DNA from: Corynebacterium glutamicum ATCC 13032
Lineage (GTDB): Bacteria > Actinomycetota > Actinomycetes > Mycobacteriales > Mycobacteriaceae
Length of the DNA: 32,000 nucleotides
Assembly (NCBI RefSeq): GCF_000011325.1
Contig: NC_003450.3
Coordinates: forward strand, 540,001-572,000
Direction: 5' to 3'
The stretch's first letter is position 1, and each line of letters begins with the position of its first letter. The translations under genes were made by a program, and so were the position numbers. This document shows positions 4,754 through 15,729 of this stretch, piece by piece. The notes under the pieces were generated by a model. It searched no databases and was not told the DNA's origin. It saw nothing but the letters and a program-made list of their open reading frames with translations.

Positions 4754-7042
4754 CTAAGAAGCAGTACGTCCTGTTGCTTCAAGGCGAACCACAACTGACT
4801 TGGACACTGGAGTGTTGGATTTTTCAGCTACTGAATCCAATGGAACCAATACGTTGGCCTCAGGGAAATACGTGGTGACGCAGTCCCTCGCGGTGTCATA
4901 TTCCACCACTCGGAAATTCGGTGCTCGGCGTTCGCCATCATCAAAGACAGAGACGATATCGACGATGTCTCCATCCTTGAGACCACGTTGCTTACAATCT
5001 TGAGGATTGACGAACACTACGCGGCGACCATTGCGAACACCGCGGTAGCGGTCATCCAGACCGTAAATCGTGGAGTTGTATTGATCATGTGAACGTACCG
5101 TGTTCATAAGCAAATAGTCCTTGGGTAGCTCAATCACATTGGTTTCATTAACCGTCAATTGGGCCTTGCCATTGGATGTGTTGAAGATGCGCTCACGAGG
5201 TCCGTTGGGGAGGAGGAATCCACCGGGGTTGTCGATGCGACGGTTGAAATCGTGGAACCCAGGAATGGTGGCCTCGATGTGATCGCGGACCACATCGTAG
5301 TTATCAATCATCGGCTGCCAGAAGGCATCACCGAAGGTCTGCTTACCGATGGTTCCAATGATGTCGCATTCGGACTTCAAATTCAGATCCTTGTTGGCGG
5401 TTCGTTTACCAGTGGATGCGTGAACAGCGCCGGCAGAATCCTCAACTGTCACACGCTGGACGCCTGACTTTTGGACATCCTTATCTGTTCGAGCAATCAC
5501 CGGAAGGATAAGTGACTGCTCACCAGGCCATGCTTGTGAACCATTGGGCTTGGTCGACAGATGCACCGTCAGCTCATTGGATTCCATGCCCTTTTCGACA
5601 ACAGACGTATCTGAGGACACTCGAACAAGGTTGCCACCGAGGGAGAGAAAGAACTTGGTCTTGCCTTCGCGCATGGCTCGCAGGGAATTTACCGTGTCGA
5701 AGCCGTGCTTGCGGGGCACATCGAAACCAAACTCGTTTTCAAGAGCAGCAAGGAATGCCTCCGGCATTTTCTCCCAAATACCCATGGTTCGATCACCCTG
5801 GACGTTTGAGTGCCCACGAAGCGGGGCAGTGCCTGCGCCAGGCTTACCAATATTTCCAGTAAGCAGCAGGAAGTTCACCATTTCACGGATGGTGTACACA
5901 GCGTTCTTATGCTGGGTGACCCCGAGAGTCCATGACACCACCACGGTGTCAGACTTTTCCACCATGTCAGCGGCCTTGTTGATCTCCGCTGCCGTCAGAC
6001 CGCATCCCTTGAGCAGAACCTCATCATCGAGTGATTTGAGGTGCTCGATGGTTTCATCCACACCTGAACAGAATTTATCCAAGAATGCATGATCTAGGGC
6101 ATCTCTACGGATGAGTTCCTTGTTGAGCGCCTGGAAGAATGCGCGGTCTCCATCAAGACGGATCTGCAAGTATTCATCAGCAAGTTTGTCTGAAATGCTC
6201 AACGCGCCCTTGACTGATTGGGGCTCACGGAATTTCATCAGACCGGTCTCTGGCATGGGGTTCAGCGCCAGAATCTTGCCACCGTTTTCCTTCAATTCTT
6301 TGAAAGCCGTCAACGCACGTGGGTGGTTGGTGCCCGGGTTTTGTCCCACGGAAATCAACAAATCAGTGTTGTAGAAATCCTCCATCACCACGGATCCCTT
6401 GCCCAAACCCAAGGTCTCACCCAAGGCAGTACCGGTGGACTCGTGGCACATGTTTCCACAGTCTGGAAGATTATTTGTGCCAAGTCGGCGGGCTAGAAGC
6501 TGCAGCATATAAGCCGGCTCATTGGGTGCTCGACCAGAGGTGTAAAACACCGCTTCATCTGGCTCGATCTCGCGGAGCTTCGACGCAATGATCGCAAATG
6601 CACGATCCCAAGAAATAGGGCGGTAGTGATCATCGCCAGAAGAACGATCATAAAACATGGGCTCGGTGATTCGGCCACGCTTTCCCAGCCAGTGATCGGT
6701 CTTTTCCCGCAGATCATAAATAGAATGCTCTGCCCAGAACTCTTTGCCGGCACGATCAGGTGTTGTTTCCTCGGCGACCGCCTTGGCACCGTTCTCGCAG
6801 AACTCAACCACACCAAGGTTGGCAGTGGAAGGCTCAGGCCAAGCACAACCAGGACAGTCGATGCCGCCTGGTTTATTCATGGTGAGCAACGGCAGCAGGG
6901 CACGATTCGGAACAGCATGCTGGAGCGCATGCAAAACGCCTGGCACACCAGCAGCAGAAGTAATGCGCCGTCCCACATCCGGATCATCAAATTCATTCGC
7001 GGTGGGATTCACGTTCGAAATCTCAGTTGGAGGGGTTGTCAT
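4754..7042 (-). CDS. fdhF: Molybdopterin-dependent formate dehydrogenase, FdhF/YdeP family
   Basis: 762-aa ORF with an N-terminal Cys cluster (CPGCAWPE...FCENG), a molybdopterin oxidoreductase core (GNMCHEST, NPGTNHPR, VTQH) and a C-terminal MopB-CT-like barrel. It is clustered with fdhD. Confidence 0.9.
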   Translation of the reverse strand: MTTPPTEISNVNPTANEFDDPDVGRRITSAAGVPGVLHALQHAVPNRALLPLLTMNKPGGIDCPGCAWPEPSTANLGVVEFCENGAKAVAEETTPDRAGKEFWAEHSIYDLREKTDHWLGKRGRITEPMFYDRSSGDDHYRPISWDRAFAIIASKLREIEPDEAVFYTSGRAPNEPAYMLQLLARRLGTNNLPDCGNMCHESTGTALGETLGLGKGSVVMEDFYNTDLLISVGQNPGTNHPRALTAFKELKENGGKILALNPMPETGLMKFREPQSVKGALSISDKLADEYLQIRLDGDRAFFQALNKELIRRDALDHAFLDKFCSGVDETIEHLKSLDDEVLLKGCGLTAAEINKAADMVEKSDTVVVSWTLGVTQHKNAVYTIREMVNFLLLTGNIGKPGAGTAPLRGHSNVQGDRTMGIWEKMPEAFLAALENEFGFDVPRKHGFDTVNSLRAMREGKTKFFLSLGGNLVRVSSDTSVVEKGMESNELTVHLSTKPNGSQAWPGEQSLILPVIARTDKDVQKSGVQRVTVEDSAGAVHASTGKRTANKDLNLKSECDIIGTIGKQTFGDAFWQPMIDNYDVVRDHIEATIPGFHDFNRRIDNPGGFLLPNGPRERIFNTSNGKAQLTVNETNVIELPKDYLLMNTVRSHDQYNSTIYGLDDRYRGVRNGRRVVFVNPQDCKQRGLKDGDIVDIVSVFDDGERRAPNFRVVEYDTARDCVTTYFPEANVLVPLDSVAEKSNTPVSKSVVVRLEATGRTAS

Positions 7043-7164
7043 AGGTCACAGTCTAGACCCGGCAATTGAACCCATGCCGAAAAATGAATTCTTCAATCTA
7101 TATGGGGGTATGTGGAAAACCTAAAATCAAGAGGACTCCCAGCACATGCGATAAAATCTCACAT

Positions 7165-7315
7165 GTCGTTTGATACTGCAAAGTACCGAATCGCACTGTT
7201 AGTTTTTCAAGGGAAGCCGGTTAACAATCCGGCGCTGACCCGCAACCGTAGATCACCTTCGCCTGGAGTTTTCACGCAAAGGGGACAAGCCGGATTACTT
7301 GGAAAACTGACATTG
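7165..7315 (+). promoter_or_regulatory. Cobalamin (B12) riboswitch-like leader, copy 1
   Basis: The core at 7211-7250, GGGAAGCCGGTTAACAATCCGGCGCTGACCCGCAACCGTA, matches the conserved cobalamin aptamer core (AGGGAA..GGT..AA.CC...GCTGAC.CGCA.C.GTA). A B12-box-like AAGCCGGATTACTTGG lies at 7287-7302. A possible P1 pairs 7201-7206 agtttt with 7303-7308 aaaact. TAAAAT at 7152-7157 is a possible -10. Confidence 0.75.
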
Positions 7316-7457
7316 ACTTAGAACCTTTTTGTCGTGGACTACGAAAAGCTTGCATCTTCAAATTCTGCGCACAAAGTGTTCTAAGACGACGTCTGCCCAT
7401 CGGCGCTCTAATGCACATTACAGCGTTTACAGAATTGAAAATGAAAGGTTCAAAGCC

Positions 7458-8087
7458 TTGACCATTACTTTTAGCCGCGTTGCTCTGACCACCCTGGCAG
7501 TCACCGCAACCACTTTGTCCCTGAGCACTGCTGCGAATGCACAGTCTTCCTTGTTGGATAAGACTCTTGATGCCCGTCAGTGCATCGATGCAGACAACGT
7601 CTGGGTCTCAGTTGACTATGGTGCAGATTCCGAAAAAGAACCAGAGGGCGCATGTGCCACCGAGTTCACTGATGGTGTTGTAGCTCTTGAATCTGCTGGG
7701 TTCAAACTGACCTTTGACGAATCTGAAATGGGCAAATACATGACCGGTATCAACGGAGTTGTTCCTGATTGGGTTGAAACTGGAACTTACTGGAGTTACT
7801 ACTCTGGTGAAGTCGCAGATGATTACAGCGTGGACTACACCTACTACGAGGTTGGTGCATCTAATTCTGAACCTGAAGGTGGAACTGTTGAGGCTTGGGT
7901 TGTTGGCACCGGCGAGGAAACACCAGCACTCGAGACTCTTCCTGAAACTCCAGCAGCAACCGGATCTTCTGAAGACGGCGGCTGGATTGCAGTCATCGCA
8001 GGTCTTCTCGCACTGATCGGTGGTGGAGTTGCAGCTTTGTACCAGGGCTTGATCACTATCCCAGGTCTGGTTCTGCCTAAGTTTTAA
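7458..8087 (+). CDS. Secreted, C-terminally anchored DUF4430-like (transcobalamin beta-domain-like) protein
   Basis: In-frame TTG at 7458 preceded by GAAAGG. Signal peptide TITFSRVALTTLAVTATTLSLSTAANA. The domain carrying C..V.V, AGF, YWSYY and GTVEAW is paralogous to 11851-12927. C-terminal hydrophobic anchor WIAVIAGLLALIGGGVAALY. The ORF-track start at 7329 would run into the riboswitch. Confidence 0.75.
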   Translation: MTITFSRVALTTLAVTATTLSLSTAANAQSSLLDKTLDARQCIDADNVWVSVDYGADSEKEPEGACATEFTDGVVALESAGFKLTFDESEMGKYMTGINGVVPDWVETGTYWSYYSGEVADDYSVDYTYYEVGASNSEPEGGTVEAWVVGTGEETPALETLPETPAATGSSEDGGWIAVIAGLLALIGGGVAALYQGLITIPGLVLPKF

Positions 8088-8114: not shown

Positions 8115-8156
8115 AGTGCCCACCGACCCTTCAAGATCGGTGGGCACTTTAGGTTT
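8115..8156. terminator. Bidirectional terminator between convergent units
   Basis: 12-bp perfect stem (8115-8126 agtgcccaccga against 8137-8148 tcggtgggcact). T-rich flanks follow on both strands (ttaggttt on plus, cttgtttg on minus). Confidence 0.7.
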
Positions 8157-8183: not shown

Positions 8184-8990
8184 TTAGACCCGAGGCACCC
8201 CGGCCTCCCCGAAGTCACGCTCGACGCCGAAAGCGGCGCGGCGGCTGGCGCGTCGTAAAGCACCTAAAACGGGTTTGGCTGTGAGCAGTAATAGCACTGA
8301 GGTGAAGAAGGCGCGGCCGAGATCCCAACCCATGGATGTGGTGAGGCAGAACAGCATGAAGGTGTGGAGGTTTTCCAGGACGGGCGCGCCGGGTGTGAAG
8401 GAAAGCCCGCTGGTGACACCGATGGCGTAGGGCCAGAAGCTCATGTTCATCATGGTTCCGTAGCCGAGTGAAGAGACGATGGCGTATAGGACGATGATGA
8501 GCATTTCCTTTTTGCCGCGTACTTGGGGGAGTAGGCCGGCGCCGAAGCTGACCCAGGCGGCTGCGAGCATTTGGTAGGGGAGCCACGGTCCGATTCCTGC
8601 GGTGAGCAGCGCGGATGCGAACAGTCCGGTGTTGCCGAGGATGAATCCGAAGCCGGGTCCGAAGGCTCGTCCGCCGAGGATGAGGACAAAGAAGACTGCT
8701 TCAAAGCCTGCTGCGCCGGCACCGAATGGTCGGACTACGGCAACCATGGCGGTGAGGACGCCGAGCATGGCTACGGCTTTAACGTCGAATCCGTTTTCAC
8801 TGATTTCGGCGATGACAGCGGCCAGCACGAGGGGAATGACGATCGCGATGTAGAGGGGCGCTTGGGCTTTGTCGGACAGGAAGGATTCCGGGTTGACGAT
8901 CAGCGGCCAGAAGAAAATCACGATGCTCAAAACCGCAAGGAAGCTTAAGGTGAGGAAGGTTTTGGGCTTGAGTGTGATGGCGTTGATCAT
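8184..8990 (-). CDS. Polytopic membrane protein, putative substrate (S) component of the ECF-type transporter
   Basis: 268-aa, Gly/Ala-rich ORF with 6 or more predicted TM segments. Its start overlaps the ATPase stop (ATGA at 8987-8990). It is the last gene of the riboswitch operon. No direct family recognition. Confidence 0.65.
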   Translation of the reverse strand: MINAITLKPKTFLTLSFLAVLSIVIFFWPLIVNPESFLSDKAQAPLYIAIVIPLVLAAVIAEISENGFDVKAVAMLGVLTAMVAVVRPFGAGAAGFEAVFFVLILGGRAFGPGFGFILGNTGLFASALLTAGIGPWLPYQMLAAAWVSFGAGLLPQVRGKKEMLIIVLYAIVSSLGYGTMMNMSFWPYAIGVTSGLSFTPGAPVLENLHTFMLFCLTTSMGWDLGRAFFTSVLLLLTAKPVLGALRRASRRAAFGVERDFGEAGVPRV

Positions 8991-10696
8991 GAGATTTCAC
9001 CATGCCCTAGCGCAGCTTTCACGGCCGAGACTGTGAGCCAGTGTGATTCCTCTTGGATGCCGGCGGTGATTTTTGCGACTTGTGGGGCGTAAGCCGGTGA
9101 TGCGGGGAGGATTTCTACGGCTGTGCCATCGGAGATGATCTTTCCAGAGGCCATAAACAACACTCGGTCGGCGCACAGTGCAGAGAATTCCACGTCGTGG
9201 GTGACCACCAAAATGGCGTGGCCGTCGTCTGCGAGTTGTTGGAAGGAGCGGGCGAGGGATTTCTTGCCGTCGTAGTCTAGGCCGCGGGTGGGTTCGTCGA
9301 AAAATACCACGCGGGGTTTTGCGGCGAGTTGGATGGACAGCGCGAGGGAGAGCTTTTGGCCTTCTGATAGATCACGTGGGTGGAGATGGTCCGGGATATT
9401 CGGGACCAGTGAATCCAGGATTTCCCGCGTGGTGCCGGCGGGTGCTGCGGCATCTTTATCAGAGCGTGCGAGCTCTGCATGCACGGTTGATTCATACAAA
9501 ATATCGGTCGGTGTTTGCGGAACCATGGACACAAGATTGCGCCGCTTGGCGGGCTTTAAAGTTTTGGGGTCTGTCCACGAAAATCCCGCGGCCTCATCAA
9601 GCACCTGCACCGAGCCCTGATTTCTAGTCCCTGAACCTTGTAAAGCCCACAGCAGGGATGATTTTCCGCAGCCGTTTCGGCCCATGAGCACGGTAATTTC
9701 ACCGGAGTTGAGATTCAAGTTCACGCCGTCAACGGCACGGATTTCGGGGAAATCAACCATGATATCTTCGGCGATCAAAAGTGGCTGGACAGCGTGGTTG
9801 TGTAATTTGTTCACCACTAAACCACGCTGATACAGGCGTTTGCGCATGTCAGCGGAGTGTGCGCGTGCATCGCGGATCGATAGCGGTAGGGGAGCCCAGC
9901 CAGCCCAGCGTCCTAATTCCACAATGGGTGGTGCCACATCAGAATCAGCCATGATTTCTTCCGGCGTCCCAACAGTGACGTGCCCATCAGCGCCCACATG
10001 CGCCACGCGGTCCACGTACTGCAGTACGCGCTCGATGCGGTGTTCAGCAAGCACTACGGTCATCGCCAAGTCATGAGCCAGCTTGGTTACGGTTGCCAGC
10101 ACATCCTCGGCACCATTAGGGTCCAAAGCGCTGGTTGGTTCATCCAAGATAATCAGCGCGGGGCGAGTGGTCAGCACCGCGCCAATCGCCACGCGCTGCT
10201 GCTCACCACCAGATAGTTCCGCCAATGGCACGTATCGCAGCTCCGCGATGCCTAAAAGATCAAGGGTTTCCTCTACGCGCTTGCGCATGACCGCAGGTGG
10301 GAGCCCTAATTGCTCCATGCTGTAGGCAAGTTCTTCTTCAACCGTGTTGGTGATAAAACTTGCCGCCGGATCTTGCCCAACGACGCCGACCACGTCGGAA
10401 AGCATGCGTGGTGGGAAATCACGCGTATCCCGGCCGACCACGCGCACGCGCCCATCAAGTCGGCCGCCGGTCGCATGCGGCATCGCGCCGGACATCGCGT
10501 TCAGCAGCGTCGATTTGCCGGAGCCGGTGCGCCCCACAACCAGCAGGATTTCGCCTTCAAAAAGCGTCAGATTCACGTCGCTGATCTGCGGCGCCGCCAG
10601 CGTGCGCTCATCGTCATAATACGAGGCAGCGACGCTTTCCAGTTCCAGCACGGGGTCCGTCGACCACGCAGTGCGCGCGCTAAAAGGAGCACTCAT
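8987..10696 (-). CDS. Fused double ABC ATPase (ECF A-A' type, CbiO-like)
   Basis: Two ABC cassettes: Walker A GRTGSGKST and GRNGCGKSS; signatures LSGGEQQRV and LSEGQKLSL (degenerate); Walker B LILDEPTSALD and VFFDEPTRGLD. Confidence 0.93.
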   Translation of the reverse strand: MSAPFSARTAWSTDPVLELESVAASYYDDERTLAAPQISDVNLTLFEGEILLVVGRTGSGKSTLLNAMSGAMPHATGGRLDGRVRVVGRDTRDFPPRMLSDVVGVVGQDPAASFITNTVEEELAYSMEQLGLPPAVMRKRVEETLDLLGIAELRYVPLAELSGGEQQRVAIGAVLTTRPALIILDEPTSALDPNGAEDVLATVTKLAHDLAMTVVLAEHRIERVLQYVDRVAHVGADGHVTVGTPEEIMADSDVAPPIVELGRWAGWAPLPLSIRDARAHSADMRKRLYQRGLVVNKLHNHAVQPLLIAEDIMVDFPEIRAVDGVNLNLNSGEITVLMGRNGCGKSSLLWALQGSGTRNQGSVQVLDEAAGFSWTDPKTLKPAKRRNLVSMVPQTPTDILYESTVHAELARSDKDAAAPAGTTREILDSLVPNIPDHLHPRDLSEGQKLSLALSIQLAAKPRVVFFDEPTRGLDYDGKKSLARSFQQLADDGHAILVVTHDVEFSALCADRVLFMASGKIISDGTAVEILPASPAYAPQVAKITAGIQEESHWLTVSAVKAALGHGEIS

Positions 10697-11844
10697 TAAA
10701 CTTCGGCCCTTTCTGGGCTATTTATTGCTTTTCGACGCTTGACCCTCACTTTGTTCTTCGGCAAGCGGGGCGTCAAGAATCCTGGCATCGTCGCCACAAC
10801 AAGTCCTGCCACAACGAGCAACGGAACGGTGTCTGGCATATGCAAAGGAACCCAGGTGGTGATCATGGAACCTGGATCAAGGTATCGTGTCAGCGCAGCC
10901 ATGAGCAGCGGAATCACACCTGTGATGCACACAAGCCATTCCGCAGCACCCCAAGGCAACTGATCAAAAGTGGTGGATGTTTTTCTATGTGAAGCAACGA
11001 CCAACGAAATGATCAAGAAGCCCACGCCGGTAATAAACACCGGAACGGCAACGAACATCGGTGATGATGCATCTAAGACCACAAACAGACCAACGGTCAC
11101 GCCGAGTATTCCGAATGCACCAAAAATAGAGGTCACACGCTGTTGGAATTTGGATACATGAGCCTGCCTGCCATAACCACGGGCATCCATGGAATTAGCC
11201 AGGGCCAAAGACCTATCCAAAGTGTCCTGGAAAACCGGCATCAAAATCCGCGCGAAACCACGAACACCTTTGGCATCATCACCACGCAAGGTTCGTGCAC
11301 GATTAATGCGGAACGCCGACTCAGCCATCTGAGGTGCAATGGAAATACCGATGACCACCGCAGTTCCCAGTTCGCCCAATGCGCCAGGCAACGATTTGAG
11401 CAGCTTCTTGGGATCCGCCAAAGAGTTCGCAGCACCCACCGCCACGATCATCGTTCCAAGCGTTAAGCCTTGCGTCGTCGCGATGATCAGACCCTCGAGA
11501 TACACCGTGCCAAACACGTGGATACCCGCAGCCCATTCCGGCAACTGCACCGGCGGGATCCGAAACAGTTCAATGGTGCCAATTTTTGCTCCCACCACAA
11601 TGTGCATGACCAACCGGTACACCACGAGCCAACCCGCGATCATCAAATAGATCGGGAAAGCACGCGACCACGGCGATGACCCACGACGGTTAAACACCAC
11701 AAAACACAACGTGGCAAAAGTGAGCGCCAAAATATAAGGATTGTTGGTCATGCTGGCACAACCAGCAATACCCAACGCCCACACCCACCACGCCCAGGGA
11801 TGAACCATCCGCCGGGACAGCACATATCGCTCAATCCATTTCAC
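10696..11844 (-). CDS. ECF transporter T component (CbiQ/EcfT family) with an extra C-terminal membrane domain
   Basis: Both coupling-helix Ala-Arg-Gly type motifs are present (INRARTLRG and SMDARGYG). At 382 aa it is longer than I recall for EcfT proteins. About 4 additional hydrophobic segments follow the second motif. There is a 1-nt overlap with the ATPase start. Confidence 0.85.
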   Translation of the reverse strand: MKWIERYVLSRRMVHPWAWWVWALGIAGCASMTNNPYILALTFATLCFVVFNRRGSSPWSRAFPIYLMIAGWLVVYRLVMHIVVGAKIGTIELFRIPPVQLPEWAAGIHVFGTVYLEGLIIATTQGLTLGTMIVAVGAANSLADPKKLLKSLPGALGELGTAVVIGISIAPQMAESAFRINRARTLRGDDAKGVRGFARILMPVFQDTLDRSLALANSMDARGYGRQAHVSKFQQRVTSIFGAFGILGVTVGLFVVLDASSPMFVAVPVFITGVGFLIISLVVASHRKTSTTFDQLPWGAAEWLVCITGVIPLLMAALTRYLDPGSMITTWVPLHMPDTVPLLVVAGLVVATMPGFLTPRLPKNKVRVKRRKAINSPERAEV

Positions 11845-11850
11845 GAAGCT

Positions 11851-12927
11851 TTAACCCTGGACCTCTGAACGACGAATCGCCCACGCCGCCACAGCAGACG
11901 CTGAAACCAAGGAAATGACAGCCAGTGTGAGTCCAATGATCCATCCCTGAGCAGAAGAATCCACCGTGCCTGTGGCGTACGTCTGCTGCGTCGAACCCTC
12001 AGCCATGACGTCTCCATCTTGGCCCGCAGGCGCCATAAGAACCTGCGTGGTCATCGGATCAACTTCAGGAGCTTCTGCCACCGCTGTTGCCTGCGGTTGG
12101 CTATTTGCTTCACCAGCCCCAGCTGGGGCTTGGACAGCAGCAGTGGTCTTAGCGGCTGCTGCAGCAACCAAGTTCTCGTACTGACCTTTAGTAATCGAGT
12201 TTCCTTCAGAATCCTGATACACCAATACCTCATTAGGGTTCTCAGGGTTTACCTCAGCAGTGGGTTCAGCTGCTTGTCCTCTTGCCGAACCAGCTCCAGC
12301 CCCTGCGATAGGAGCTTCAGTAGTTTCAGTGGGCTCTTCGTCACCCCCTAAATCGGCGATAGGGGACTCGGAGGTTGGGGTTGTGGTGATGAAATCATTT
12401 GGATCAAAATCAATTTTGTAATCCGGATCCGCGGAGTCTAACCCCAACTCCGCCTGAGATTTACTCACCGGGATCGCGCCGGGACGATCAGTATCTCCCC
12501 AATACCACGCTTCAACAGTGCCGGGTTTGGGGTAGTAGAGGAAAGCTCCAAGGTTGCTGTATTCCCATTCATCTCCGCCGAGGGGAGCATGCCAATAAGA
12601 CCAATAAGCTTCAGCAGGTGATGCGGTCATGCAATCGTCCACATCAGGACCTGGGAAATCATTGATTCGGCACAAGAATTCTGGAAACTGAACGGTGGTT
12701 TCCACATCAAATCCGGCATCAAGAAGCGTTTGATAGCCATTTCCGCCGGCGTCAGCACAGCCGATGGTGTTGCCCTCAACCATCACTGTCACTTGGTCGT
12801 CTTCACAAGGCGTGGTCAAGGCGTGCGCAGAAGGAACCCATGGCGATATGGCAAGAACAATCCATAGTGCGACTGCAGCTGCAAAAGACTTCAGCGACAG
12901 GTGAAAAGTTGAGGTTCGAGACATCAC
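11851..12927 (-). CDS. Secreted, C-terminally anchored DUF4430-like (transcobalamin beta-domain-like) protein with a long acidic/Pro-Ala-Thr linker
   Basis: Signal peptide ...AAVALWIVLAISPWVPSAHA. N-terminal domain with C.DDQVTVMV, AGF, YWSYW and GTVEAWYWG. Low-complexity linker, then C-terminal TM WIIGLTLAVISLVSASAVAAWAIRR. The start is GTG 12927 or, more likely, ATG 12924 (GAGAAG 7 nt upstream). Confidence 0.75.
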   Translation of the reverse strand: MMSRTSTFHLSLKSFAAAVALWIVLAISPWVPSAHALTTPCEDDQVTVMVEGNTIGCADAGGNGYQTLLDAGFDVETTVQFPEFLCRINDFPGPDVDDCMTASPAEAYWSYWHAPLGGDEWEYSNLGAFLYYPKPGTVEAWYWGDTDRPGAIPVSKSQAELGLDSADPDYKIDFDPNDFITTTPTSESPIADLGGDEEPTETTEAPIAGAGAGSARGQAAEPTAEVNPENPNEVLVYQDSEGNSITKGQYENLVAAAAAKTTAAVQAPAGAGEANSQPQATAVAEAPEVDPMTTQVLMAPAGQDGDVMAEGSTQQTYATGTVDSSAQGWIIGLTLAVISLVSASAVAAWAIRRSEVQG

Positions 12928-12944: not shown

Positions 12945-14129
12945 TTAAAACTGCAGGTTAGCCATCATTGGTCCCATGACACCAGCGATGGCGGCAAGGA
13001 TGGCCAAGATGGCGATGATAATTCCAGCGCCGCCAATTCCACCGGTGGATCCCTCTGAATCAGCTGGGGGAGTTGGAATTTCTGGATCTGGAGTTGGATC
13101 TACTGGGTTCGCAATGGTGATCAGTTTATCGTTGGCGTAGTTACCGCCTGCAAAACCTAATGCTGCTTGGCCAGTTGCGCGTCGAATCTGATCGCTAATC
13201 GCAGTGTTGGTTTCCTTAGCCTTCACGGTGAAAGCAAAGCCACCCTGAATCGATGGGTCTGCATCTTCGCCAAATTGAACAGATGCCAGGTATTCACGAG
13301 CCTTGAGGTAGTTTTCCTCATCGCCCGCAAGAGCAAAAGCGGATCCGACAATTCCCGTGGAGTTGGAATTCACACCGGTCCAAGTATTTTTGACACCACC
13401 GGTCTCATCCATCGTGGTGACGAGGTAATCGAGAGTGGCTTGTGTGGTTGGATCCTGCGCACCATTTGCCAGAGTCAAAGCCTGTGCAGCCATTGCAGTG
13501 ACATCGGAATCCGTGGTTTTGCATGTAGGTTCGATTGCTGAGGCTAATTGGACACCACCGTCGGAGCACACTTGAGTTTTAAGGAATTCTGTTGCGCGCT
13601 CGGCTGCTTCGGTTTCACCGACGCGGTGCAGAGCTAGAACGCCCCAGGCCTGGCTGAAGTTATTAATTGCAGTTGTGGCTTCACCATTATCTAAGTTTTT
13701 GATCTGACCGTTTTCTTGAACAGCGCTGACAAGTTGCGCGATAAAATCAGCATCTCTGACGCCGAGGGCATCTTGGAAAGCTACGGTCTTGGCTAGACGA
13801 TCGCTGAAGATGTAGTCAGAAACTGAGACATAGCCCTCGAGCTCCGGAGCAATTGCAGCATATGCAGCGTCGATCTCTGGAGAATCAGGGGCAAGCGCAT
13901 TTAGGGACAGCAACAGATCCTGATTGAGCCCAATATCTGGAGTACCTACAGGCCCAGGGATGAGGCCATTCGTTGCAAATTCTTTTTCGATGAATTGGGT
14001 AGCTAATTGAATATCCGATGATGCATCCTGTGCAGCAACGACCTGTGGAGCCAACAGGGAAACACCGGTTGCTAAAGCCACGGTTGCAGCAGACCAGCGA
14101 ATGGTTCTCTTCCCACGTAGATGAGCCAT
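12945..14129 (-). CDS. Secreted, C-terminally anchored alpha/alpha-barrel (prenyltransferase/terpenoid-cyclase-repeat-like) protein
   Basis: Signal peptide ...TVALATGVSLLAPQVVAAQD. Recurring helical-hairpin motifs (QENGQIKN, CSDGGVQL, DETGGVKNTW, SIQGGFAF). Pro-rich stalk, then TM IIIAILAILAAIAGVMGPMM. It is the first gene after riboswitch copy 2. The fold assignment is an inference. Confidence 0.65.
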   Translation of the reverse strand: MAHLRGKRTIRWSAATVALATGVSLLAPQVVAAQDASSDIQLATQFIEKEFATNGLIPGPVGTPDIGLNQDLLLSLNALAPDSPEIDAAYAAIAPELEGYVSVSDYIFSDRLAKTVAFQDALGVRDADFIAQLVSAVQENGQIKNLDNGEATTAINNFSQAWGVLALHRVGETEAAERATEFLKTQVCSDGGVQLASAIEPTCKTTDSDVTAMAAQALTLANGAQDPTTQATLDYLVTTMDETGGVKNTWTGVNSNSTGIVGSAFALAGDEENYLKAREYLASVQFGEDADPSIQGGFAFTVKAKETNTAISDQIRRATGQAALGFAGGNYANDKLITIANPVDPTPDPEIPTPPADSEGSTGGIGGAGIIIAILAILAAIAGVMGPMMANLQF

Positions 14130-14234
14130 GAAAACATGTCCTTAAAATGAATTGGAGAAATGTTCTGACCCCGCTTTAAGGCACACATTACTGCGCTTCA
14201 ATACGGGCTTCAGAACCGTAATCCTCGACGGTTT

Positions 14235-14400
14235 GGAGCCACTCATTTCTTATTCAGGTGATCCGGCTTAATGCAATACCTGGTGAAAGCGATTGCATAA
14301 TACGGTTGCGGGTCAGCTTCGGGTTCTCACCGAAATTCCCCTGAAAAAGAACGGATGGTGTCCTACACCATAAAATCACCATCGGTGCTGGTCAAATGAA
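14235..14400 (-). promoter_or_regulatory. Cobalamin (B12) riboswitch-like leader, copy 2
   Basis: On the minus strand, 14340-14301 reads GGGAATTTCGGTGAGAACCCGAAGCTGACCCGCAACCGTA, the conserved aptamer core. A short P6-like hairpin follows (tgcaat...attgca). The B12 box AAGCCGGATCACCTG lies at 14269-14255. The leader continues to ATG 14129. Confidence 0.85.
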
Positions 14401-14448: not shown

Positions 14449-14973
14449 TTAAGAATCTGTGGCTATCCAATAGCGTCGCATTCCACGGATCGTGGATTCA
14501 TAAACTCCACCGCACTTTTCGATGACGTTCCTGGACGCTTCGTTATCTCCTGCGACGCACAGCAAAACCTTGTCGATGCCCAAGGCCTGAGCTTCATGAA
14601 CACCGAGTTTCAGCGCTGCGGTTGCAGCACCTTTTCGACGCGCAGACGGGCGCACGCCGTAACCAATGTGGCCCGCGACTTCCAGGAGATGTTGGTTCAG
14701 CTCGTGCCTTAAAGCTAAGAATCCGACAAGAACATCGTCATCATCAACGATCCAGAAATAGCTGCAGTGCACAAAACCTTCCGGTGGTGGAACCGAAGGA
14801 TCGGCCGCGTCAGTGCGCTCCTTGAGGTAGTGGTGAAATCCTGCTTCGGAATAGTCGATGGGAAGATAGTTCTCGAAATAACCCGAGCCGTGGATGGGGC
14901 CTGATCCGAATTCTTCCAAAGCCTCTTTCCACATGGCGTGGCCTGACAAATGCGGTGAGATTAATTTGTACAT
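14449..14973 (-). CDS. GNAT-family N-acetyltransferase
   Basis: 174-aa ORF with acetyl-CoA binding motif A (VRPSARRKGAATAAL) and the typical GNAT beta-strand pattern (FWIVDDDDVLVGFLALRH). Confidence 0.85.
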   Translation of the reverse strand: MYKLISPHLSGHAMWKEALEEFGSGPIHGSGYFENYLPIDYSEAGFHHYLKERTDAADPSVPPPEGFVHCSYFWIVDDDDVLVGFLALRHELNQHLLEVAGHIGYGVRPSARRKGAATAALKLGVHEAQALGIDKVLLCVAGDNEASRNVIEKCGGVYESTIRGMRRYWIATDS

Positions 14974-15330: not shown

Positions 15331-15729
15331 ATGACAATGACTGATCCAATCGCCGACATGCTGTCGCGCGTGCGCAATGCTAGCAATGCGCACCACGACA
15401 CCGTGTCCATGCCATCCTCCAAGATCAAGGCAAACATCGCCGAGATCTTGAAGCAGGAAGGCTACATCGCTAACTACACCGTTGAGGATGCAAAGGTCGG
15501 CAAGACCCTGTCCCTCGAGCTGAAGTACAGCAACACCCGTGAGCGCTCCATCGCTGGTCTGCGCCGCGTTTCCAAGCCTGGTCTGCGTGTATACGCTAAG
15601 TCCACCAATCTGCCACAGGTTCTGGGCGGCCTTGGCGTGGCTATCATTTCCACGTCACAGGGCCTCCTGACCGACCGTCAGGCTACCGAGAAGGGCGTAG
15701 GCGGAGAAGTCCTCGCCTACGTCTGGTAA
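15331..15729 (+). CDS. rpsH: 30S ribosomal protein S8
   Basis: 132-aa [20 protein letters not shown]...GGEVLAYVW, canonical S8. Confidence 0.97.

Follow-up and report, generated by a model that had tools for sequence, protein, structure and literature searches.

A riboswitch-controlled energy-coupling factor transporter operon of Corynebacterium glutamicum with a fused ATPase, a long T component and two transcobalamin-like surface proteins

The subject of this analysis is an operon of Corynebacterium glutamicum that encodes an energy-coupling factor (ECF) transporter and lies within 32,000 nucleotides of strain ATCC 13032 (contig NC_003450.3, positions 540,001 to 572,000 of the forward strand); this whole stretch is called the window, and all positions refer to it. 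Three overlapping genes on the minus strand (cg0621-cg0623) encode the ECF T component, a fused A-A' ATPase and a polytopic protein of 268 aa, the S component. They belong to a longer unit in which, in the direction of transcription, a promoter-like site and a cobalamin riboswitch are followed by a cg0625-like gene, a cg0624-like gene, the genes for T, A-A' and S, and a hairpin (Table 1). A preliminary description of the three genes, made from the letters of the sequence, had proposed an ECF-type module with a fused A-A' ATPase, a long T component and two extracytoplasmic proteins, positioned behind a B12 riboswitch, and this proposal was borne out. The locus is an actinobacterial, riboswitch-controlled member of an ECF class that has been noted but barely studied, and whose accessory proteins resemble a transcobalamin split in two. 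The design is widespread in Actinobacteria, and had previously been described only for a related operon of Lactobacillus sakei (L. sakei).

The riboswitch matches its adenosylcobalamin (AdoCbl) model over the full length (model positions 1-149; E 4.7e-07), its 52.4 bits exceeding the gathering score of 50, and the position of the promoter-like site fits the start of the leader. Between the end of the riboswitch and the ATG of the first gene there are 73 nt, and the Shine-Dalgarno sequence of this gene is AAGGA. Further downstream, the tight overlap of the three ECF genes, with junctions at 10696 and 8987-8990, was found as initially described: the T stop codon TAA (10698-10696) and the ATPase start codon ATG (10696-10694) have one base in common (TAATG), and the ATPase stop and the S start are combined in ATGA at 8990-8987. 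T, A-A' and S are translationally coupled within one operon. The hairpin is located 36 nt past the S stop and 28 nt past the stop of the convergent plus-strand open reading frame (ORF) at 7329-8087, and is likely to be a bidirectional terminator. The layout shows a single transcription unit that begins with the riboswitch (14364) and extends to the hairpin (8115).

Table 1. Features of the operon and of the gene convergent with it.
Feature	Coordinates	Strand	Basis or remarks
Promoter-like site TTGACC, 17 nt, TATGGT	14367..14395	-	Consensus scan only; directly upstream of the riboswitch; not by itself functional evidence
AdoCbl (cobalamin) riboswitch aptamer, operon leader	14203..14364	-	Rfam RF01482
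cg0625-like, 394 aa, alpha/alpha-toroid protein (predicted)	12945..14129	-	Signal-like segment and C-terminal membrane anchor
cg0624-like, 358 aa, transcobalamin beta-domain-like fold (modelled)	11851..12927	-	Signal-like segment, linker, C-terminal membrane anchor
ECF T component cg0623, 382 aa	10696..11844	-	EcfT/CbiQ core and C-terminal extension
Fused ECF A-A' ATPase cg0622, 569 aa	8987..10696	-	Two complete ABC cassettes
ECF S component cg0621, 268 aa	8184..8990	-	Divergent PF12822-type
Hairpin, 15 bp stem, 9 G-C pairs	8115..8148		Terminator-like scan
Divergent transcobalamin-beta-like paralogue, C-terminal membrane anchor	7329..8087	+	cg0624-family HMM; convergent with the operon, common hairpin

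In published work, cg0622 has been named a cobalt-transport ATPase, cg0623 a permease with 8 predicted helices, cg0624 a hypothetical membrane or secreted protein, and cg0625 a putative terpenoid cyclase or secreted protein (PMC2807442, PMC3140484). The literature searched contained expression tables for these genes, and no functional study of cg0621-cg0625 or of SCO2321-SCO2325 was found in it.

The T component consists of a canonical core and a C-terminal extension. Pfam CbiQ covers residues 22-226 only (5.6e-06, above the Pfam cut-off), and the matching chains of solved EcfT proteins (4hzu_T and 4huq_T, 1.4e-05, and 5d3m_D), which have 266-280 aa, align to residues 71-234. The two Ala-Arg-Gly motifs with which the coupling helices of EcfT/CbiQ-family proteins end are present in cg0623; they are ARTLRG (residues 183-188) and DARGYG (residues 220-225), had been recognised at the outset, and take the conserved forms ARxLRG and D[SA]RGYG among about 65-70 homologues. 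Past the second motif there are four hydrophobic segments, at about residues 236-256, 259-287, 298-320 and 338-361, and all four had been regarded as additional. However, in solved EcfT the aligned part is followed by about 28 residues, which is room for one helix. One segment thus corresponds to the canonical last helix and only three are extra, in agreement with the 8 transmembrane helices given for cg0623 in PMC2807442.

The T component is long irrespective of the start codon chosen, as an alternative ATG located 12 codons downstream, corresponding to the start used in some databases, still gives 370 aa. It is 99% identical to cgR_0632 of strain R, and its 120 best homologues have 345-450 aa and mostly cover 85-97% of the query. 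Within the extension, W298 and E302 are invariant in an alignment across orders, and a YRPDxW motif recurs in most of 67 T homologues. A frameshifted fusion of two genes, or another annotation artefact, had been named as a possible origin of the long T; this origin is rejected on the basis of the length and coverage of homologues from many orders and the conservation of the extension residues and of YRPDxW. The C-terminal tail is strongly basic, and the RxxYRPDxW loop would be cytoplasmic if this tail lies inside. We infer that the three extra helices and the RxxYRPDxW loop are family-specific additions.

The two ATP-binding cassette (ABC) domains that an ECF transporter requires (A and A') are present in cg0622 as a single fused chain of 569 aa, as had been proposed (Pfam ABC_tran, two domains, 9.2e-49). 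In NCBIfam, the chain matches ECF_ATPase_1 and ECF_ATPase_2 (about 1e-80), although neither match reaches the equivalog cut-off for the single domain, and it also matches the cbiO subfamily. Its two cassettes have the Walker A motifs GRTGSGKS and GRNGCGKS, the signatures LSGGE and LSEGQ, and the Walker B motifs LIILDEP and VVFFDEP, respectively. The second signature, in which Glu replaces the second Gly (residues 443-447), had been described as degenerate (LSEGQKLSL), but this part of the description did not stand: LSEGQ is the norm in the family (74 of 80 homologues), the Walker A and B motifs are intact, and a degenerate second ATPase site as a peculiarity of cg0622 is rejected. Judged from the alignment, LSEGQ is a family character of the second cassette. 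The first cassette keeps LSGGQ or LSGGE (65/78 homologues) while LSEGQ is nearly universal in the second, which points to two ATP sites of A-A' that are asymmetric by design.

The 268-aa protein had been presented as an S candidate that was larger than usual and unrecognisable. Its size is indeed unusual, but it is no longer unrecognisable. The protein belongs to a family of more than 6075 homologues, many of which are named ECF transporter S component, and 17 of 25 sampled homologues match PF12822; cg0621 itself has no Pfam match above the thresholds, and weakly matches the FolT-family model TIGR04518 (0.0014), with residues 68-199 on model positions 2-133. The AlphaFold2 model of cg0621 (predicted local distance difference test score, pLDDT, 78.5; predicted TM-score, pTM, 0.79) was compared with the PDB by Foldseek, and every one of its 18 best matches is an S component of known structure (probability 0.87-1.00). 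They comprise PanT, FolT, RibU, ThiT, BioY and CbiM, with TMt up to 0.75 (4huq_S), and solved CbiM ranks below the vitamin S components. The ECF trait of an integral-membrane S component with the six-helix S fold is therefore present in this larger protein, and the FolT alignment and the helix list suggest that about two additional helices are found at the N-terminus.

The comparison with known S families placed cg0621 among PF12822-type proteins through its homologues, and gave no sequence match to CbrT or CbiM. With the S-family profile, no PDB chain was found at E up to 10 in a library that includes the CbrT entry 6FNP, and S is thus not a relative of CbrT or BtuM at the sequence level; CbrT is also not among the leading fold matches of the model. 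CbiM models matched neither cg0621 nor 25 of its homologues. CbiM has a metal-binding N-terminal His motif, and the N-terminus of cg0621 (MINAITLKPK) is without such a motif. The idea that the 268-aa protein might be unrelated to S components, or might not co-occur with the other genes, did not hold either: it is S-related, and is found with T and A-A' in 57-59 of the 58-59 loci compared.

Both genes upstream of that for T encode proteins with an N-terminal signal-like segment and a C-terminal hydrophobic segment that forms a membrane anchor. In cg0624, these segments are located at residues 7-37 and 325-352; a folded domain spans residues about 36-165 (window 12433-12822) and is followed by an acidic Ala/Pro-rich linker. 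The AlphaFold2 model of the domain has a pLDDT of 94.1. In the Foldseek search, ranks 1-14 are taken by haptocorrin and by transcobalamin, including entries of the beta domain alone (5np4 and 5no0; TMt 0.56), with a probability of 0.99-1.00; rank 15 is a bacterial protein, 3u7z, which we take to be a DUF4430 protein, rank 16 is intrinsic factor (probability 0.75), and transcobalamin appears once more at rank 20. According to the model, the N-terminal domain of cg0624 has the fold of the transcobalamin beta domain, with TM-scores to the cobalamin carriers that are moderate (about 0.5). Searches of Pfam, NCBIfam and the PDB with the single sequence and two profiles gave no sequence-level match for the domain. 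Among its relatives, 37 of 51 beta homologues match NCBIfam SCO2322_fam, and the domain of cg0624 itself does not. An exhaustive search recovered 1650 representative relatives; a word-indexed search with the 130-aa domain gave only 2, which is a limit of the index.

A beta-like protein that was overlooked by tblastn is encoded at positions 6461-7183 of locus L045 (Candidatus Nanopelagicales, acI lineage). The order of its motifs is swapped, with YRYWTYW...GSVEGWRF ahead of ...RVALAIDFG...GYELL...LICGIAGYP, which suggests that this beta domain is circularly permuted.

In cg0625, the signal-like segment is located at residues 13-33 and the anchor at residues 359-394. Its family profile matches squalene-hopene cyclase at 1e-20, and its homologues match Pfam Prenyltrans (14/17), SQHop_cyclase_C (11/17) and TED_complement (8/17), whereas the eukaryotic Pfam family Cobalamin_bind is touched by only one of the 17 (E 0.01), and no solved transcobalamin is among the matches of the family profile. 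On these matches, cg0625 can be assigned to the alpha/alpha-toroid superfamily. The alpha domain of transcobalamin is of the alpha/alpha-toroid fold class (PDB 2BB5). All 17 alpha homologues match NCBIfam SCO2321_fam, and cg0625 itself reaches 3.8e-13 with 49 bits against a cut-off of 300. The cg0625 and cg0624 families both contain nearly invariant cysteines, Cys188 and Cys203 being invariant in the former, and such conserved cysteine pairs fit an extracytoplasmic location. The two proteins had initially been called extracytoplasmic binding proteins; they are extracytoplasmic, but they are not classical ABC substrate-binding proteins and instead look like the two domains of a split transcobalamin. 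A role of cg0625 as a terpenoid cyclase or prenyltransferase enzyme was set aside, since the protein carries signal and anchor segments and is paired with the beta-like gene in a fixed arrangement.

In several alpha homologues (loci L006, L017, L021, L060 and others), LPXTG/LAVTG-type sortase motifs replace the plain C-terminal helix, and Pfam Gram_pos_anchor and NCBIfam Microco_LAVTG are matched by 3/17 and 7/17 of them, respectively. These motifs indicate that some lineages may fix the alpha protein to the cell wall rather than to the membrane.

The gene set is widely distributed. In a scan of one genome per species, at least 598 genomes encode the S family; its best 80 loci all belong to Actinomycetota, and the carriers include the freshwater acI lineage, soil relatives of Streptomyces and the industrial C. 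glutamicum. The S family is strongly conserved, its Corynebacterium members being 53-59% identical to those of other actinobacterial orders. Gene neighbours were counted with hidden Markov models (HMMs) in the 58 loci with enough upstream DNA: T was found in 57 of these, 53 have an upstream beta-like gene in the same orientation, and 44 have an alpha-like gene. The same 44 loci contain both, and there the alpha/beta pair is always directly upstream of T. A tblastn survey found A-A' in 59/59 loci and undercounted the accessory genes (alpha 25/59, beta 49/59). Of the 17 loci checked, counting that of the window, 12 have a riboswitch of the B12 clan (RF00174, RF01482 or RF01689) upstream of the operon; the 11 positive loci among the 16 others, with the riboswitch on the operon strand, are L001, L002, L005, L018, L024, L030, L034, L045, L047, L051 and L054. 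The set of genes behind B12 riboswitches, whose co-occurrence had been suggested earlier as a check, is conserved within Actinomycetota. The gene set, the long T and LSEGQ recur in dozens of distant actinobacterial genomes, and these features are therefore more than chance. Judged against the textbook ECF transporter, the architecture is atypical, as first described, but with so many carriers of the S family and a published L. sakei layout, it is neither rare nor new.

Two of the loci surveyed stand out. In Luteococcus peritonei (L030:6381-7168), an AdoCbl-II riboswitch is located directly 5' of the beta-like gene, which is followed by T, and no alpha-like gene is found in the operon. In Embleya sp. 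MST-111070 (L034:360-12600), six separate cobalamin riboswitch matches are found within 20 kb on both strands, and this neighbourhood is unusually dense in B12 regulation.

In textbook accounts, ECF transporters work without an extracytoplasmic substrate-binding protein, although this trait is not a strict criterion. The operon described here departs from it with two tethered surface proteins. The same exception is found in the L. sakei operon lsa1836-1840, which, compared by its published description, has the same layout of S, fused A-A', T, transcobalamin-beta-like and transcobalamin-alpha-like genes, and whose exported proteins were matched by HHpred to transcobalamin's beta and alpha domains (bioRxiv 10.1101/864751). 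The content of such an operon (alpha, beta, T, A-A' and S) is complete here, the beta fold being recognised by the model and Foldseek and the alpha toroid by profile. The two operons differ in several aspects: the L. sakei system was linked by experiment to heme uptake and no riboswitch is mentioned for it, whereas a B12 riboswitch leads the operon of C. glutamicum; Lsa1836 is an S component of 230 aa with six predicted helices, as compared to 268 aa and about two more helices; and the surface proteins are reported to be soluble or exported for L. sakei, whereas both have C-terminal membrane anchors here.

The characterised B12 transporter of the ECF type is ECF-CbrT of Lactobacillus delbrueckii, which takes up cobalamin and cobinamide (PMC5997447; PDB 6FNP). 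The C. glutamicum system shares with it the logic of T, A, A' and S, and the toppling mechanism is expected for both. However, CbrT is a group II transporter that uses a module common to seven other S components, with separate A and A' subunits, and no transcobalamin-like surface protein is described for it (PMC5997447), whereas the module here is dedicated and has a fused ATPase. The S component shows no homology to CbrT by profile or by leading folds, and it is encoded together with T and A-A' instead of drawing on a general module from another place in the genome. Likeness to the animal carriers transcobalamin, intrinsic factor and haptocorrin lies in the beta-domain fold of cg0624 and the predicted alpha/alpha toroid of cg0625. 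Unlike these carriers, which are single soluble polypeptides that bind cobalamin between their two domains and are taken up by receptor-mediated endocytosis, the bacterial version is split over two genes, each product is tethered, and it is coupled to an ABC-type importer; similarity of the beta domains in sequence is undetectable. The CbiMNQO and NikMNQO systems resemble the operon in that a dedicated ECF module is encoded together with S and extra non-core subunits, sometimes under the control of cobalamin riboswitches, and they are the source of the "cobalt transporter" names of cg0622 and cg0623; they differ in that no CbiM or CbiN homologue is present here and that the accessory proteins are large surface proteins with a different fold. 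Finally, the NCBIfam families SCO2321 and SCO2322, which are named after adjacent genes of Streptomyces coelicolor and whose names carry no function, cover the alpha and beta homologues, and given the numbers of matches described above, both accessory families were already catalogued.

Based on these observations, we consider it probable that the locus encodes an ECF importer of the dedicated type (group I) which takes up cobalamin or related corrinoids and is switched off by AdoCbl via the leader riboswitch. In such an importer, the tethered cg0624 and cg0625 proteins would form a split transcobalamin on the outer face of the membrane, capture scarce corrinoid between their two domains and hand it over to S. 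The S component would then topple against the T scaffold, as it does in ECF transporters of known structure, with the fused A-A' dimer binding and hydrolysing ATP to power this movement. The extra T helices and the RxxYRPDxW loop may be docking sites for the enlarged S, for the membrane anchors of the two surface proteins or for the ATPase. Precedents support this view: an ECF module behind cobalamin riboswitches was proposed as a B12 transporter in acI Actinobacteria that lack B12 synthesis (PMC5301498), and the five-part operon of L. sakei was auto-annotated as cobalamin transport (bioRxiv 10.1101/864751). A more far-reaching version is tentative, and we regard it as rather doubtful: Actinobacteria would import B12 mainly via an ECF transporter that, against the usual ECF scheme, depends on a membrane-tethered heterodimeric receptor outside the cytoplasm, made of separate transcobalamin alpha-like and beta-like proteins, which captures corrinoid and loads it onto an enlarged, eight-helix S; the three extra T helices and the YRPDxW loop would be the docking platform, and the split pair would be a prokaryotic relative of transcobalamin, intrinsic factor and haptocorrin, the fused carriers of animals, and might even be ancestral to them.

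It should be noted that several points weigh against corrinoid import as the function of the locus. The link of these actinobacterial genes to B12 is read from sequence, and the pairing of alpha and beta, the transfer to S and the function of the T extension are deductions. The sequence matches tie cg0625 to the toroid superfamily and not to transcobalamin in particular. In the S alignment, there is no conspicuous invariant Cys or His that could act as a cobalt ligand. Of the 58 operons, 14 have no alpha gene, and five are without a detectable beta gene, at least two of which keep the long T; it may therefore be that the surface proteins assist transport but are not required for it, and the alpha protein may be dispensable in the 14 loci or encoded elsewhere. 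Moreover, the only tested relative, that of L. sakei, was linked to heme uptake and not to B12 (bioRxiv 10.1101/864751), and cobalt ECF importers are also found under cobalamin riboswitches, for instance CbiMNQO of Clostridioides difficile (PMC11477304), so that regulation alone leaves the substrate unfixed.

These points bear on three other explanations. An unlikely one is that the ECF core imports another compound relevant to the riboswitch, such as cobinamide or a lower-ligand precursor, or that the surface proteins have an unrelated function in the envelope, for instance as a terpenoid-type enzyme or an adhesin, and simply lie in the same operon. The transport of both cobalamin and cobinamide by ECF-CbrT (PMC5997447) agrees with the first part, but import of cobinamide is a variant of corrinoid import rather than a true rival of it. 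An envelope function could account for the annotation of cg0625 as a putative terpenoid cyclase/prenyltransferase subunit, for the squalene-hopene cyclase match of its family profile and for the sortase anchor motifs, typical of surface proteins, in some alpha homologues. However, an extracytoplasmic, tethered toroid protein would probably have no access to isoprenoid diphosphate substrates, and an unrelated role is difficult to reconcile with the observation that, in 44 of 58 loci, the toroid protein is paired with a transcobalamin-beta-like gene and the pair is always placed directly upstream of T.

We consider it very unlikely that the operon encodes an importer of cobalt ions, which B12 would repress since cobalt is needed only for B12 synthesis. 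The source names of cg0622 and cg0623 ("cobalt ABC transporter permease/ATPase"), the cbiO subfamily match and the known targeting of cobalt ECF systems by riboswitches (PMC11477304) are in favour of it, but the names stem from generic CbiQ/CbiO family labels. The S component and its 25 homologues match no CbiM model, only PF12822, the CbiM-type His motif is missing, and solved CbiM stands lower in the fold search than the vitamin S components. In addition, no small CbiN-like two-helix gene is found within the operon, and two large surface proteins with transcobalamin-like folds would be unexpected for an ion.

A heme importer like Lsa1836-1840, in which the split transcobalamin-like pair would scavenge heme for the ECF core, is highly improbable: deletion of the L. 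sakei operon, with its same five-part architecture, lowered and overexpression raised heme accumulation (57Fe-hemin and a heme sensor), but B12 was not tested there and heme docking was purely computational (bioRxiv 10.1101/864751), whereas a cobalamin riboswitch, under which heme import would make no regulatory sense, is located upstream here and in 11 of the 16 further actinobacterial loci checked, and the operon contains no heme-related gene.

Routes of B12 uptake are still poorly predicted from genomes, and current lists of candidates contain BtuBFCD, BacA and CbrT and leave out the S family of cg0621 (bioRxiv 10.64898/2026.09.01.748612). If the locus is truly a B12 importer, a large annotation gap would be filled, as most copies are labelled "cobalt transporter" or "hypothetical", and the interest of the locus lies in its being a likely major, unannotated B12 uptake route. 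It would also provide a tractable model organism for asking whether ECF transport can be aided by extracytoplasmic binding proteins, and structural and evolutionary work on the animal B12 carriers would gain relatives from bacteria.

Beyond the hairpin, the convergent plus-strand gene encodes a divergent second member of the cg0624 family. It is matched by a cg0624-family HMM that was built without it (3.9e-19), shares 30% identity with cg0624 by BLASTP (E 1e-04), and has a hydrophobic segment at residues 216-245. Upstream of this gene, no riboswitch was detected at the gathering score. Its signal-like stretch starts near residue 43, so that the listed TTG start codon is probably too far upstream and the true start located downstream of it. 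The region next to this paralogue, at 4754-7042 on the minus strand, contains an ORF of 762 aa, which is presumably the formate dehydrogenase cg0618. On the other side of the operon, an ORF of 174 aa (14449-14973, minus strand) lies just upstream of the promoter-like site of the riboswitch, and ribosomal protein genes begin at 15331.

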